Under the pieces are notes generated by a model. The model saw nothing but the letters and a program-made list of their open reading frames with translations. It had not been told where the DNA came from and did not search any database. This document shows, one piece after another, positions 9,075-15,248 of a stretch of 64,000 nucleotides of DNA (the stretch's first letter is position 1; each line of letters opens with the position of its first letter). The DNA comes from a virus. Position numbers and translations under genes: made by a program. The stretch is taken from the IMG/VR virus record IMGVR_UViG_3300008116_000125, positions 7,713 to 71,712 of that record; one strand, 5' to 3'.

Positions 9075-12000
9075 TTAGACTGGCAGTTCTCTAATCATTA
9101 TCTTCACACCATTTGCAGGAGCTGTTGTAAATGTTAATGTTGTGCCTGCAACTGTATAATCTACCTCAGGTTCCTGCATTACACCGTTTTCAGTAACAAG
9201 TACAGAATTATTTGTCATTCCGGTCGTTACTGTATAAGCTGTAGCTGATCCATTACCTGTATACGTTCTATTTAGGTATGTTAGGGAACCTACATCACCT
9301 TTGTTACCTTTATCGCCAACATTACCCTTGTCTCCTTTAGCACCGCCTTCAATAATAGTTACATCAATTACATCATTATTAGCAGGTGCAGAAGAGAATG
9401 TAAGTGTGTTACCAGAAACTGTATACGAGGATTTAAGCTGTAAAATACCTTGAATATTTACAATTGTATATTCTTCGCTTGCAGGTGCTACCGAAAGAGT
9501 AAATGAGTTAGCTGATCCATTTCCAGTAAAGGTGTTAAGTGTTACCCCAAAGAAGCCGTCATCGCCCTTCTGGCCTTTAGCACCACCAACAAGTGTAGTG
9601 ATATCAATTACATCATTATTGGCTGGCGCTGATGAGAAGGTAACGTTACTGCCTGAAACAGTATACGATGATTTTAACTGAGTGATACCCTGTATATTAA
9701 CAATGGTGTGGTTTTCATCGATTGGGGTAGTAGATAATGTAAAGACTGTTTGAGATCCATTGGCAGTAAAGGAATCTAAGGTAACATCAAATGTACCTGC
9801 GGTTCCGGGTTCACCCTTATCTCCTTTAGCAGAAGCAGTGCCCGGCTCTCCTTTGTCACCTTTATCTCCATTTACACCTATAACTCCGTCGATACCTTTA
9901 TCACCTTTGACTCCGGTATCGCCCTTGTCACCTTTGGTGCCGGCACCGGTGTCGCCTTTTGCGCCTGTATCACCCTTGTCGCCTTTATTACCTTGAGCTT
10001 CTACATCTCCCTTATCGCCCTTAGTACCAGTATCACCTTTTTGTCCGGTGTCACCTTTATCTCCAGTATTACCTTTTACTCCAGTATCACCCTTATCGCC
10101 GGTTGCCCCAGTGTCTCCTTTAGCCCCACTAGCTCCGGTATCACCTTTAGCGCCAGCTGTACCTGTATCTCCTTTAGCCCCAACAGCGCCGGCATCACCT
10201 TTATCTCCTTTATCCCCAGCAGCGCCTGTAGAGCCAATATCACCCTTAGTACCAATGTCACCTTTTTGTCCGGTGTCGCCTTTATCACCTTTATCGCCGT
10301 TAGTACCAGCTGACCCTGTATCACCTTTTTGACCTACATCACCTTTATCACCTTTAGAGCCAGTTGTGCCTGTATCGCCTTTATCGCCGGCAGATCCTTT
10401 ATCACCAGTTGCACCTGTAGCTCCAACATCTCCCTTATCACCCTTAATACCGGTATCACCCTTATCGCCTTTATCACCAACATCACCAGTTCTCGCAAAC
10501 GTTAAAACAGTAACAGTATTATTACTTAAGCTAGTACTACCTGAAAGGTAGCTTACCGGAACTTCAAAATAATGTGTATGATGGGTATGAGATCCTACAA
10601 TACTAAAAATAGCGTAGTTATTATTATTTGCTATGTCAGTTACTGAGAAATGACCTTTAATAGCAGATGTAGAGTCATCTATTGTTTGAAGAAAAGAGTA
10701 AACGTTTGCTGATGATCCATCTTGCTGGTCAATGTAAAGCTTTGTAGCTGAAGATAAAGTAGTATTATCAAATCTAAAAAACCCGTCGCCAGGCTCGGTG
10801 TTAGCAGTTAAGTTAGTGTAGGTGTAATCAAAAGATTGCCCGCCAAAAGAACCTGTGTCTCCTTTTGATCCAGTATCACCTTTGTCACCCTTAGATCCTG
10901 CTACTCCGTTGTCACCTTTATCTCCTTTTGAACCACTGTCACCTGCATCTCCTTTTGACCCAGTATCACCTTTTGCCCCTGTATCACCTTTTTGCCCAGT
11001 GTCGCCTTTATCACCTTGGACCCCTTTATCTCCAGTGGCTCCTGTGTCGCCCTTTGATCCGGTATCACCTTTATCACCTTTGTCTCCTTTTGAGCCTGTA
11101 GGGCCTACATCAGAAATACTAATAGTTCCTTGCATGGAACTATGAAACTGGCAAATGTAGTATAGTGTACTTGGAGCATCGTATGGTACATTAAAAATAA
11201 TAGTACCAGAATCAGTTCCATTATTAGTTACACCAGTGTTATATTGATTACCGGTGCCTGTAGTAGCGCTTGTTTTTATCCAGAAAGGATGACCGGAAGC
11301 ATTTACGTTAAATGTATATGAAAATCCTCGGAGTAAATTTAGGGTAGGATTATTAGTCCCATCTATTGTGTAAGCGCTAGCGCCGCTGTTGGTTACACTA
11401 TACGATCTTGATCCTGTATCACCTTTAGATCCTGTATCACCTTTGTCACCTTTAGACCCGGTAGCCCCGGTAGCACCTGTATCTCCTTTGGAGCCGGTTG
11501 CTCCAGCATCACCTTTATCGCCCTTGGATCCGGTATCACCTTTATCACCGGTGTTGCCTTTTGCGCCTGTATCGCCCTTGTCCCCGGTAGCCCCAGTATC
11601 ACCCTTGTCGCCAGTATTACCTTTTACACCTGTGTCACCTTTATCACCAACTGCTCCGGTGTCACCTTTAGCTCCCGTGACGCCAGTATCACCTTTATCG
11701 CCTTTGTCGCCGGTAGCTCCAGCTGCCCCTGTATCTCCTTTGTCTCCGGTAGCACCAGTTGCGCCAGTAGACCCTGTATCTCCTTTATCACCTTTGCTAC
11801 CAGCTGTACCGGTGTCACCCTTATCGCCCTTATCACCATTAGTTCCTGCTACGCCTGTATCACCTTTAGCGCCTGTGCTGCCTGTATCTCCTTTAGATCC
11901 GGTATCGCCCTTATCGCCTTTGTCACCAACATCACCTGTTCTAGCAAACGTAATTACTGTAACAGTATTATTACTAAATCCAGTATTACCAGAAAGATAG

Positions 12001-13316
12001 CTAACAGGCAACTCAAAATAATGTGTGTAGTGAGCAGAAAAATGACCTTTTATGGCTGATGTTGAATCATCTATAGTTTGTAAGAAGGAGTAAACGTTTG
12101 CTGATGATCCATCTTGCTGGTCAATAAAGAGTTTGGTTGCTGAAGTAAATGCAGTATTGTTAAATCTAAAAAATCCATCACCAGGCTCAGTATTGGATGT
12201 TAAATTGGTATATGTATAATCAAAAGATTGCCCGCCAAAAGAACCTGTGTCTCCTTTTGATCCAGTATCACCTTTAGAGCCCGTAGCGCCTGTATCACCT
12301 TTGGATCCTGTATCACCCTTGGATCCTGTGTCGCCTTTATCACCTTTATTGCCTTGAGCTTCTACATCACCTTTATCGCCCTTAGAGCCGGTGTCGCCTT
12401 TGTCTCCTTTTGATCCAGTGTTACCGGTCGGTCCTACATCTCCTTTGTCACCTTTATCACCTGTTGCACCAGTGGCTCCAGTTAAACCAGTGGCACCTGT
12501 GTCACCTTTGTCTCCTTTAGAACCTGTATCACCTTTCGCACCTGTATTGCCAGTATCGCCTTTATCGCCTTTAGAGCCTGTATCGCCTTTATCCCCGGTG
12601 TTACCTTTTACTCCTGTATCACCTTTATCGCCTTTGTCACCAGTAGCGCCTATCTCACCTTTATCTCCTTTAGAGCCAGTAGCACCTGTAGCTCCGGTAT
12701 CACCTTTGTCACCAGTAACGCCAATGTCCCCTTTAGCACCGGTAGGGCCTAAGTCCCCTTTATCTCCTGTATCACCTTTTGTGCCTGCATTAGACGTGAC
12801 AAGCCAGGTCGATCCATTGTATGTTAATTCGATTACAATATTACCAATATCAACGATTAGATCATCAGCAGCACCTTCTATAGTGTTACCGTTTCTAGCA
12901 ATGGTAAGATTGTTGTTTGACCAGTTACCTCCATCATTAATTCTAACCCAGTCTCCAGAGGATGGGGAAGTTGGAAGTGTAACTGTAAATGAGCCTGATG
13001 TAGTATCGGCTAGAAGAGTGCTACGAGCAGTAGCGGTGGTGTTAGATGTGATGTACGTATATGCATCAAGTGTACCGGTGCTACCTTTATCACCTTTGTC
13101 CCCTTGATCGCCTTGAATACCCTTATCGCCTGTAAGACCAATATCACCTTTATCTCCTTTAGTGCCGGAGACAACGATAACAGTGTTATCAGAACGTTTA
13201 GTAAAAAGTAGTCCGTCAGAAAGGTTTACGGCTAGTTCGCCAACCTGAAGGTCTTCACCTTTAGGTAGTTTACCCGAAACGGAGGATCTCTTAAGCTGAA
13301 AAGCAGTATTCGCCAT
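9075..13316 (-). CDS. Long collagen-like tail fibre (Gly-X-Lys/Thr rich) with interspersed globular domains
   Basis: N-terminal QLKRSS...GELAVN fibre-attachment motif; gp34-like [12 protein letters not shown] domain; long GDK/GDT/GSK runs; duplicated ~110-125 aa domain; cupredoxin-like domain; three C-terminal TxNGS..FT..Q...YTV.G..TF..AP repeats. Confidence 0.85.
10485..12275 (-). repeat. Dispersed direct repeat encoding a duplicated domain in the collagen fibre (copies at about 10485-10885 and 11930-12275)
   Basis: Shared exact stretches such as aatcaaaagattgcccgccaaaagaacctgtgtctccttttgatccagtatcaccttt and gagtaaacgtttgctgatgatccatcttgctggtcaat. Confidence 0.9.
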
Positions 13317-14476: not shown

Positions 14477-15248
14477 CTAGCCTGGTAATATCTGTGGCTA
14501 CGGTAATTAAATGCGTGTTTTCTATTGTACTCATTATAACGCCTCTTTCAATATCAGAGCCAAGCTCACTTCTTGGCTTTTGTTTAAAAACTTTATTGCT
14601 GTATGCTATGGGTGTTAGACTAAATTTAGAAGTAAAAATTCGTTGAAGGTTAATAAAATTATTTTTTACATTAATATTATTTGAAAGGCAGTATCTATTA
14701 TAGTCAACATTAAATAGTGAAGGAAAAAACTCATCAACGGGAATTAAATTATTTTTATAGTTAGATAGTTCAATTATTTTTTTAGCTGTTGAAGGAGAGA
14801 TAGCGTACGCGCTATTCCAGTAAGGGTAGTAAGGCTTAAAGAACCTATCGTTAACGTGCTTTATTTCATCTGGCACCATCTCTCTATGATCTAGATAGAC
14901 GACATCATATGTGTTAAGAAGATCCTCAACTTCTGCTAGATCAAGATTATCAATTCTTTCAGCATCATCTTCTAGTATGAGAACCGGACAATCAAGTTCT
15001 ATACATTTCTCCCAAGCTTTATAGTGAGAGATCATTGCAGCGAGATCTGTGTTGGTGTGATTGCGTCCTAGCATAGGATCTATCCACTGACTGAACGGAG
15101 TAAAGCCTCTCTGTTTAAAGTCGTTCAAAGAAAGGGTATACCCGTTAAGAGCATCAATTCTCTCCCATTCGTATCCGGAGAGTTGCTGCTGCATAAAAGA
15201 TAATCTATCTTGTCTAGTCGCTAGATTGATTACTAATATTTTCATCAT
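14457..15248 (-). CDS. Glycosyltransferase family 25, COLGALT-type; C-terminus carries the start of a PLOD GT domain
   Basis: VINLATRQDR, WIDPMLGRNHT, SHYKAW, LILEDDA, YWNSAYAIS, LIPVDEF; ends in HLITVATD, which resembles PLOD LVITVAT. Confidence 0.85.
   Translation of the reverse strand: MMKILVINLATRQDRLSFMQQQLSGYEWERIDALNGYTLSLNDFKQRGFTPFSQWIDPMLGRNHTNTDLAAMISHYKAWEKCIELDCPVLILEDDAERIDNLDLAEVEDLLNTYDVVYLDHREMVPDEIKHVNDRFFKPYYPYWNSAYAISPSTAKKIIELSNYKNNLIPVDEFFPSLFNVDYNRYCLSNNINVKNNFINLQRIFTSKFSLTPIAYSNKVFKQKPRSELGSDIERGVIMSTIENTHLITVATDITRLDETEPG

Follow-up and report, generated by a model that had tools for sequence, protein, structure and literature searches.

The DNA analysed here is a stretch of 64,000 nucleotides (nt), positions 7,713 to 71,712 of the virus record IMGVR_UViG_3300008116_000125 of IMG/VR; it is referred to below as the window and forms part of a record of 71,712 bases with an estimated completeness of 42%. 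Between positions 9075 and 15248 its minus strand holds a gene for a long collagen-like fibre and, directly upstream, two open reading frames (ORFs) related to the enzymes that hydroxylate and glycosylate lysine in animal collagen. The reading favoured here, to which we assign a probability of roughly 0.7, is that one three-domain gene modifies the lysine residues at the Y position of the Gly-X-Y triplets of the adjoining fibre, and that this gene has been split in the present record by a deletion of 101 nt. The evidence comes from the catalytic residues of the enzyme family, from intact relatives of the gene, and from the company this gene keeps with collagens of a particular lysine pattern.

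The enzyme gene and its intact relatives

The upstream ORF (14457-15248, minus strand, 263 aa), the 5' piece of the broken gene, comprises a GT25 catalytic domain of the COLGALT type (aa 1-181), a helical linker and the first strand (HLITVATD) of a PLOD-type glycosyltransferase domain, past which six out-of-frame codons lead to a stop. The PLOD-like ORF (13343-14476, minus strand, 377 aa), the 3' piece, consists of a glucosyltransferase domain minus its N-terminal third, a short linker and a lysyl-hydroxylase domain (HHD...THGH...K). The GT25 ORF matches PF01755 with E 1.3e-19 (71.3 bits, cut-off 24); all four of its PDB sequence matches are COLGALT1, at about 3e-14, and no NCBIfam family, the lipopolysaccharide (LPS) families included, was matched at 1e-5. 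For the PLOD-like ORF the match to PF25342 (GT_PLOD) has E 1.2e-47 (162.6 bits, cut-off 27) and extends over profile positions 55-236 of 246 only, the match to 2OG-FeII_Oxy_3 reaches 25.3 bits, below the cut-off of 27, and the PDB sequence matches are human LH3 (2.7e-35), mimivirus R699 (2.3e-23) and mimivirus L230 (6.4e-7), the glycosyltransferase domain of LH3 giving E 1.8e-25 over the aligned stretch. The HMMER alignments display the motifs DP..GR..T, EDD, PVDEF, HHD and THGHEG in the two ORFs, so that the PLOD-like and GT25 genes which a preliminary description of this DNA had placed, with such motifs, directly upstream of the fibre are confirmed in their coordinates, strand and motifs by HMMER, Pfam and PDB comparison. 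Judged from their sequences, both ORFs are true relatives of LH3/PLOD, COLGALT1, R699 and L230.

The catalytic residues can be followed one by one. The DXXD motif for Mn2+ with its tyrosine is present, VDGYDV in the window being aligned with VDSYDV in LH3, and the PLOD-like ORF keeps DGYD together with HGNGG. The iron triad HxD...H is likewise in place, CHHDAS and THGHEG aligning with PHHDSS and THYHEG of LH3, and an acidic DDQL loop aligns with the poly-Asp stretch of the human enzyme. In the GT25 ORF, EDD and PVDEF accompany the match to the GT25 profile; the two-domain architecture of COLGALT1 is absent, the alignment being limited to chain residues of about 300-500 (the catalytic domain), at which the phage protein starts. 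The tryptophan that stacks on uridine (W48 in R699) falls within the 101-nt deletion and is missing from both ORFs of the window, and PF25342 is not covered as a whole domain there, its first strand lying on the other ORF and 34 residues being deleted. Outside the deletion, no residue that is invariant in the family has been lost from the window.

The two ORFs are halves of one GT25-glucosyltransferase-hydroxylase gene. The family phrog_61 (689 positions) spans both, matching the PLOD-like ORF with its positions 262-633 and the GT25 ORF with 1-177 (the E values of the two matches are 8.4e-56 and 4.7e-32). Three IMG/VR relatives at 84% identity have a common locus sequence, which read in one of them (L005) is a single ORF of 670 aa; another IMG/VR relative, at 65% identity, has a single ORF of 674 aa. 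The cultured Synechococcus phage S-CAM9 and Roseobacter phage CRP-6 yield intact single ORFs of 613 and 589 aa on translation, and the Synechococcus phage S-PRM1, likewise cultured, has an annotated coding sequence of 614 aa at the corresponding place. A megablast search with the DNA of the enzyme region against 50,697 phage records gave no match, and the protein-level search of these records gave 11. The surmise of an original GT25-glycosyltransferase-hydroxylase fusion lacking the middle domain of PLOD is thus borne out by the single ORFs of the relatives and by the span of phrog_61.

In the DNA alignment with the three closest relatives the window shows a clean gap of 101 nt, with its junction at 14476/14477. 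The deletion removes 34 codons (residues 258-291 in the numbering of the relatives) and shifts the frame, and the overlap of the two ORFs by 20 nt in different frames arose because it cut one gene. In the AlphaFold model of an intact relative, the deleted segment corresponds to most of the helix 254-267, the strand 271-273 and the loop with W280; when the family model is aligned with the record from which the window comes, positions 1-268 and 288-658 match, with stops in between. Programmed frameshifting, or a natural two-gene form, was considered for the window and rejected, as 101 nt are missing by comparison with the relatives and with near-identical contigs. A split without loss is found elsewhere, in locus L017 (9998-11937), where two overlapping ORFs match model positions 1-234 and 242-658 and no sequence is lost. 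Short of its first helix, its second strand and its tryptophan, the PLOD-type glycosyltransferase domain is damaged in this record, and the full kit for a glucosyl-galactosyl (Glc-Gal) modification is therefore probably non-functional as written here. Of the animal-like enzyme kit previously described, the kinship with PLOD and COLGALT stands; the two separate genes and the whole glycosyltransferase domain have given way to one gene with a deletion.

The status of the break was examined with contigs of four public runs from four studies, which were compared with positions 13900-15100 of the window; 25 of the 42 contig pieces were listed. A contig of 1399 nt (X1 record 1), with three mismatches on one side and none on the other, has about 100 extra letters at 14476, after which the match resumes, and the same holds for a contig from another study (X5 record 15; five mismatches over the aligned parts). 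X9 shows loose ends at 14476 on both sides, of which one of 103 letters encodes, as read by eye, GGDMSKPGGG, a part of the missing segment; in X3 record 9 the match ends at 14476 with 198 letters left. The junction 14476/14477 of the window was crossed by none of the 25 pieces listed. Since near-identical contigs carry the missing letters, the break looks like a private variant of this record or an assembly error, and not like something characteristic of the phage lineage; rare variants can go unseen in contigs, so that the deleted form may exist at low frequency.

In the intact family the conserved catalytic motifs of all three domains are present. All 17 fused homologues, down to 39% identity, keep EDD and P.DE (E93, D94, D95, P170, D172 and E173 of the GT25 domain), W280, D314/D317 and H454-N-G, and H595/D597, H642/H644 and K654 are invariant in the same set. 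The active site of R699 is formed by DXXD plus a Trp/Tyr uridine sandwich (W48, Y85, D83, D86), according to the available portions of PMC12279948 and PMC9546862, and the counterparts of these four residues are conserved in the intact phage relatives, W280 being that of the tryptophan. The intact relatives cover the whole PF25342 domain. The AlphaFold (AF2) model of one of them has a mean pLDDT of 88.3, and its Foldseek matches comprise LH3 (2e-31; the human GGT domain 6wfv with a TM score of 0.88, the root-mean-square deviation (rmsd) being 1.9 Å), R699 (1e-19), COLGALT1 (2.6e-14) and R655 (3e-8). The hydroxylase domain of L230 (6ax6_B) superimposes with a TM score of 0.75 and an rmsd of 2.3 Å over 174 columns, so that the lysyl-hydroxylase fold is found in the model, and the GT25 domain is 22-23% identical to COLGALT1 in the structural alignment. 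The PLOD accessory domain has no room in the model, the hydroxylase domain being less than 50 residues away from HGNGG. The relationship to PLOD3, COLGALT1 and L230 that had been proposed for the enzymes is upheld in this way by sequence matches and a high-confidence model alike.

The family is large. A profile built from the 17 fused proteins retrieved 265 stretches from IMG/VR, of which the best 80 loci were kept for the comparisons below; at least 231 protein clusters belong to the family, and PF25342 and PF01755 occur together in 111 of the 120 best database relatives listed. Its members are labelled in databases as LPS glycosyltransferase, as 2-oxoglutarate (2OG) oxygenase or as hypothetical. 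Among bacterial genomes, 76 loci, mostly of metagenome-assembled genomes (MAGs) of Ilumatobacteraceae and other Acidimicrobiia, encode a separate protein with 32-50% identity to the lysyl-hydroxylase domain of the phages. Three bacterial-genome loci do have a collagen-like ORF, namely a fused form on a small MAG contig and the loci of Kaistia terrae and Streptomyces kronopolitis, the latter two being partial multi-domain forms.

Collagen-like fibres and their lysines

The likely substrate is the collagen-like fibre of 1413 aa (9075-13316, minus strand), whose start codon follows the stop codon of the PLOD-like ORF at a distance of 26 nt. It matches Pfam Collagen with E 3.4e-101 in nine stretches and contains 248 Gly-X-Y triplets in 11 runs, the longest of which covers aa 461-637; with such long runs it qualifies as a triple-helix repeat protein and would presumably form a trimer. 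The commonest triplets are GDK (58), GDT (48), GSK (22), GAT (18) and GAK (12). Lysine occupies the Y position 109 times and the X position never, and these 109 residues make up most of the 123 lysines of the whole protein; proline occurs three times at X and twice at Y. The fibre is hence what it had been taken for, a Gly-X-Lys collagen with almost no proline. It is at X-Lys-Gly, with lysine at Y, that collagen lysyl hydroxylases act.

Globular modules interrupt the collagen runs, and the C-terminus resembles the T7-tail-fibre-N domain; the globular inserts had no significant match in Pfam. One of these inserts (aa 638-737, window 11106-11405, minus strand) has two cupredoxins as its best PDB sequence matches, auracyanin B (E 0.44) and a copper nitrite reductase (E 0.61), both non-significant and both aligned on the tail that holds the Cys-His-Met copper site, with no match in Pfam. 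The fibre also contains near-identical non-collagen modules at aa ~364-460 and ~828-943, which points to an internal duplication; the fibre of an 84%-identical relative is shorter (1134 aa) and has one such module. Two further fibre genes of the window share the lysine pattern on a smaller scale. The second fibre (6519-9059, minus strand), downstream of the 1413-aa protein, has a short N-terminal Gly-X-Lys stretch of ten triplets, six of them with lysine at Y, and Ig-like domains. The third (18681-20162) has 37 triplets, 14 with lysine at Y, plus a GPP run, and ends in a C-terminal Peptidase_S74 chaperone domain.

The association of enzyme and collagen was examined over the family, a collagen ORF being one with 10 or more triplets in runs of 6 or more. 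Such an ORF is found in 55 of the best 80 enzyme loci, on the strand of the enzyme in all 55, and 22 of the 25 loci that have none possess less than 5 kb upstream. Of the loci with 8 kb or more of flank to either side, 18 of 20 have a collagen ORF, and of those with 8 kb or more upstream, 35 of 38. As a control, IMG/VR was scanned for twelve GG dinucleotides spaced 9 bases, a pattern blind to the residues at X and Y, which gave at least 76 loci; eight loci repeating a contig and loci with identical collagen counts were dropped, and three giant-virus loci are included. None of the control collagen loci carries the fused enzyme, and two have partial single-domain matches.

The two sets differ sharply in where their collagens carry lysine. 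The median fraction of lysine at Y is 0.385 in 44 distinct enzyme loci versus 0.027 in 68 distinct control loci; a fraction of at least 0.15 is reached by 42 of the 44 and by 11 of the 68, and lysine at X is absent from all 44 enzyme loci and from 40 of the 68 controls. A second comparison, with a slightly different duplicate filter and controls limited to the GC range of the enzyme loci, gave medians of 0.376 (42 enzyme loci) and 0.036 (32 controls), with p 2e-10 when relatedness is ignored. Summed up, the 42 enzyme loci hold 5140 triplets with 1821 lysines at Y and none at X, as against 6992 triplets, 232 lysines at Y and 83 at X in all 64 distinct controls; the background lysine frequency in other ORFs is nearly the same, 0.054 versus 0.051. 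The association is seen again in phages of unrelated types, both in T4-like contigs of about 150 kb and in Roseobacter phage CRP-6 (45 kb), in which a KGQKGE-rich fibre lies two genes upstream of the fused gene; in S-CAM9 such a fibre lies three genes upstream. The expectation that the enzyme should co-occur with lysine-rich collagen has turned out strongly positive at the level of the family.

Proposed pathway and competing readings

The proposed sequence of events is as follows. In the infected cell, the hydroxylase domain would convert lysine residues at Y of the unfolded fibre chains into hydroxylysine; the GT25 domain would add the first sugar, probably galactose, and the PLOD-type glycosyltransferase domain the second, probably glucose, and the fibre would trimerise after the lysines have been modified. 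In the present record the glucosyltransferase step has probably been lost, the GT25 and hydroxylase domains being intact on separate ORFs. Modification of unfolded collagen chains ahead of trimerisation is the order described for animals in the available part of PMC8968730. The earlier proposal that this phage decorates its fibres with hydroxylysine-linked galactose or Glc-Gal is supported by the association seen across the family and probably does not hold for a full kit in this record, where the gene is damaged. The wider statement, that many aquatic phages make animal-style glycosylated hydroxylysine on collagen-like fibres, in bacterial cells and with one polypeptide, is put forward more tentatively, at slightly less than even odds.

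Several points speak against a collagen-modifying enzyme at this locus. The gene is broken in this very record, and all activities and both sugar donors of the phage enzyme are assigned from homology. The basic residue after GT, an arginine in LH3, is presumably the one that binds the C5 carboxylate of 2OG; the window has GTKY where LH3 has GTRY, a conservative change to a lysine (K654) that is invariant in the phage family. In 76 of the best 80 bacterial-genome loci the hydroxylase domain alone was matched, with no glycosyltransferase domain and no collagen-like ORF within their flanks, and hence the hydroxylase fold by itself implies no collagen substrate. Among the viral loci, L032 and L033, which lie on different contigs and have flanks of 10 kb to either side, lack a collagen ORF within that distance, and L015 has a Pro/Thr collagen with one lysine in 38 triplets; the enzyme was found in none of the four lysine-rich control collagen records, which are uninformative at a completeness of only 18-63%. 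The loci are related by descent, and the p-values therefore overstate their independence. Lastly, lysine at Y before Gly-Asp/Glu can by itself stabilise the triple helix by salt bridges, without hydroxyproline, and a Gly-X-Lys collagen therefore requires no modifying enzyme.

In this context the competing explanations have to be considered. Were the deletion real, the phage would have either a reduced pathway, with fibre lysines that are hydroxylated, perhaps mono-glycosylated and not glucosylated, or a decaying pseudogene. We regard this as possible, at somewhat less than even odds: the record does carry a 101-nt gap plus a frameshift, neither of the two ORFs that remain shows further damage or has lost any other invariant residue, an ATG exactly at the junction means that the 3' piece can start there, and the clean two-ORF form of L017 demonstrates that split forms do occur; on the other hand, none of the 25 contig pieces listed (of 42, from four runs) crosses the junction, contigs of two studies with three and five mismatches contain extra letters at 14476, and a locus long in decay would be expected to show other damage, of which both ORFs are free. 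A different doubt concerns the chemistry, which might depart from the Glc-Gal-hydroxylysine of animals in using other sugars or in placing a single sugar directly on hydroxylysine, as mimivirus L230 does. Donor and acceptor specificity cannot be read from sequence, and L230 puts glucose directly on hydroxylysine, R699 requiring galactosyl-hydroxylysine (PMC9546862, in its available part); the GT25 domain is only distantly identical (22-23%) to COLGALT1, and a heptose-pathway-like cluster with a GT1 enzyme is also encoded in the window. Against such a departure stand the acidic DDQL loop, the DxxD motif, the tyrosine and the tryptophan of LH3/R699-type glucosyltransferases, all conserved in intact relatives, the GalE equivalog of the window and the GalE-like genes in four of five large carrier contigs, and the fusion of GT25 to a GGT-type domain, the pairing expected for two successive transfers. 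We consider an altered chemistry rather unlikely.

It may also be asked whether the enzyme acts on the fibre at all, or whether it merely rides in the tail-fibre region and targets host LPS, surface glycans or another protein. The annotations of the source and the category of phrog_61 give an LPS or auxiliary-metabolic role, the GT25 family includes LPS galactosyltransferases (Pfam description), and the hydroxylase-only homologues of Acidimicrobiia without a collagen neighbour and the two full-flank enzyme loci without collagen fit this picture. The GT25 ORF, however, finds COLGALT1 in each of its four PDB sequence matches and no NCBIfam LPS family at 1e-5, and its domain is fused to a protein lysyl hydroxylase. 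The association with collagens that have lysine at Y and never at X is strong and specific, independent of GC content and of background lysine, the enzyme lies on the strand of the collagen ORF in 55 of the 55 loci that have one, and the association recurs in unrelated phage types, from T4-like contigs of some 150 kb to the 45-kb CRP-6. We consider a target other than the fibre very improbable, and the modification of the adjoining fibre by one three-domain enzyme remains the preferred explanation.

Genomic setting and comparison with known systems

The window derives from a T4-like myovirus, as seen from Pfam matches to gp15, the neck protein, gp8, gp6, gp25, gp5 and gp53, and further to gp32, gp59, the late-transcription coactivator, PhoH and RNase H. 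Between about 1600 and 39900 lies the structural module, and all ORFs of at least 75 aa kept in the ORF list for this region are on the minus strand. Read along that strand, the gene series opens with the collagen/S74-chaperone fibre (18681-20162), the third fibre mentioned above, and proceeds through an adjoining stand-alone 2OG-Fe(II) oxygenase (18100-18666), two small ORFs, a fibre-like protein of 670 aa (15454-17466) and an ORF of 70 aa to the GT25 ORF, the PLOD-like ORF, the 1413-aa fibre and the second fibre, all of them on the minus strand. The oxygenase matches PF13640 (E 4.4e-15), positions 446-632 of phrog_61 (E 2.7e-30) and PiuC/YbiX-type hydroxylases (1.2e-6), is conserved in the relative L008, and may be a further fibre hydroxylase. 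The orientation of the genes flips, inside the baseplate region, at a protein with a TnsA-like endonuclease N-terminal domain (39958-40395, plus strand, E 2.9e-23), which may be a homing endonuclease. Also present is a full-length isocitrate lyase gene (60880-62178, minus strand; NF011645 with 784 bits against a cut-off of 562, Pfam ICL 9.4e-104), which may serve the phage as an auxiliary metabolic gene for the glyoxylate shunt.

As to expression, the sequence TATAAATA, which we take to be the T4-type late-promoter consensus, occurs at 18080-18087 (minus strand), 24 nt upstream of the ATG at 18055. Such a placement would suit a late promoter; with four matches in the window versus 9.6 expected by chance the sequence is not enriched, and the late promoter previously proposed at 18080 reduces to a single consensus match devoid of statistical support. 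A second perfect copy lies at 13474-13481 (minus strand), inside the hydroxylase ORF and about 160 nt upstream of the start codon of the fibre, and could be an internal late promoter of the fibre gene or a chance occurrence. Sigma-70 promoters and terminators scanned for in 6000-21500 came out at the level of chance, with 42 versus 48 and 9 versus 8.7 expected, and no operon is therefore claimed beyond tight packing on the same strand. The public data sets listed as containing this stretch included none of RNA. From the packing within the late module, co-expression of enzyme and fibre is plausible.

A possible source of UDP-galactose is a UDP-glucose 4-epimerase of the GalE type (57325-58281, minus strand; TIGR01179 with 264.1 bits against a cut-off of 262.3). 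This gene does reach the equivalog cut-off; its link to the enzyme is weaker than the preliminary description had stated, since it lies 42 kb from the enzyme gene, inside a heptose-pathway-like cluster. GalE-like genes are found in four of five large enzyme-bearing viral contigs, one of them above the cut-off, a comparison that covers carriers only and offers a lead only. The surrounding nucleotide-sugar cluster (54777-58675, minus strand) comprises a GmhA-like sedoheptulose-7-phosphate isomerase, an HddA-like heptose kinase, a GT1 enzyme, GalE and an RfaE-domain-II-like adenylyltransferase; it looks like a heptose pathway, and all of its members except GalE stay below the equivalog cut-offs.

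The closest counterpart among known systems is the complex of human LH3 (PLOD3) and COLGALT1 (PDB 6fxk, 6fxr, 8zgc, 9evj), which offers an equivalent for all three catalytic domains of the phage and shares with the phage enzyme the substrate context, X-Lys-Gly in a collagen repeat. Where that assembly has two proteins, the phage has a single chain of about 670 aa in the order GT25, GGT, LH (lysyl hydroxylase). It differs from LH3 in lacking the PLOD accessory domain and in having lysine for arginine at the presumed 2OG-binding position, and from COLGALT1 in lacking the N-terminal non-catalytic domain; in contrast to the animal enzymes of the endoplasmic reticulum it would act in the bacterial cytoplasm, and in the window its GGT domain is truncated. 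L230, R699 and R655 of mimivirus (Acanthamoeba polyphaga) are likewise a viral set of collagen-modifying enzymes encoded beside virus-encoded collagens. Mimivirus, however, is a giant virus of a eukaryote and has separate enzyme genes, whereas in the viruses of bacteria the three domains are fused. Prolyl-4-hydroxylases such as Bacillus anthracis P4H (5hv0/5iat) and vCPH of PBCV-1 (5c5t) share with the phage enzyme the fold of 2OG/Fe enzymes, a double-stranded beta-helix, which shows in weaker fold matches (about 1e-6), and for them an action on collagen-like repeats has been either suggested or demonstrated; they hydroxylate proline and have no glycosyltransferase domains, whereas the fibre of the window has five prolines in its 248 triplets. 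The existing names of the phage family, phrog_61 ('2OG-Fe(II) oxygenase', category moron or auxiliary metabolic gene), to which the enzyme ORFs of the window belong, and the JGI label 'GR25 family glycosyltransferase involved in LPS biosynthesis', refer to one domain or to LPS and make no link to collagen.

Glc-Gal linked to hydroxylysine counts as a hallmark of collagen in animals. In open-access papers and preprints neither a lysyl hydroxylase of phages nor the glycosylation of hydroxylysine in them was found to be described, in keeping with the earlier remark that no characterised phage example is known, and neither appears in the available portions of PMC2938197, PMC8968730, PMC7029224, PMC12220804, PMC11410667 and PMC13738210. 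In what is accessible of PMC2938197, hydroxylation and sulfation of bacterial collagen-like proteins are predicted for other dioxygenase families, and the dioxygenase arrays of cyanophages are treated as secondary-metabolite genes. Among viruses, Glc-Gal-hydroxylysine appears, from the accessible text of PMC9546862 and PMC12279948, to have been characterised in mimivirus only. The chemistry, then, is already known from animals and mimivirus; the triple fusion in phages is new.

For this window taken alone the message is a smaller one, a gene model interrupted by a deletion from which the surrounding population is free. If the reading is true for the family, animal-type glycosylation of hydroxylysine would be widespread in phages of aquatic bacteria, unrelated phage types included, and glycosylation of tail fibres would have to be reckoned with in phage stability, host recognition or protease resistance. 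A family now labelled LPS glycosyltransferase or auxiliary oxygenase would need to be relabelled. A compact enzyme with conserved motifs for three steps would also be relevant to glycosylated recombinant collagen, whose production in bacteria is still not possible according to the authors of the R699 work (PMC9546862, available part), and the phage fusion might provide a route to it by bacterial expression. Along these lines, the fusion would be nature's minimal form of the machine by which metazoans glycosylate collagen lysine, and it may be related to that machine by descent.

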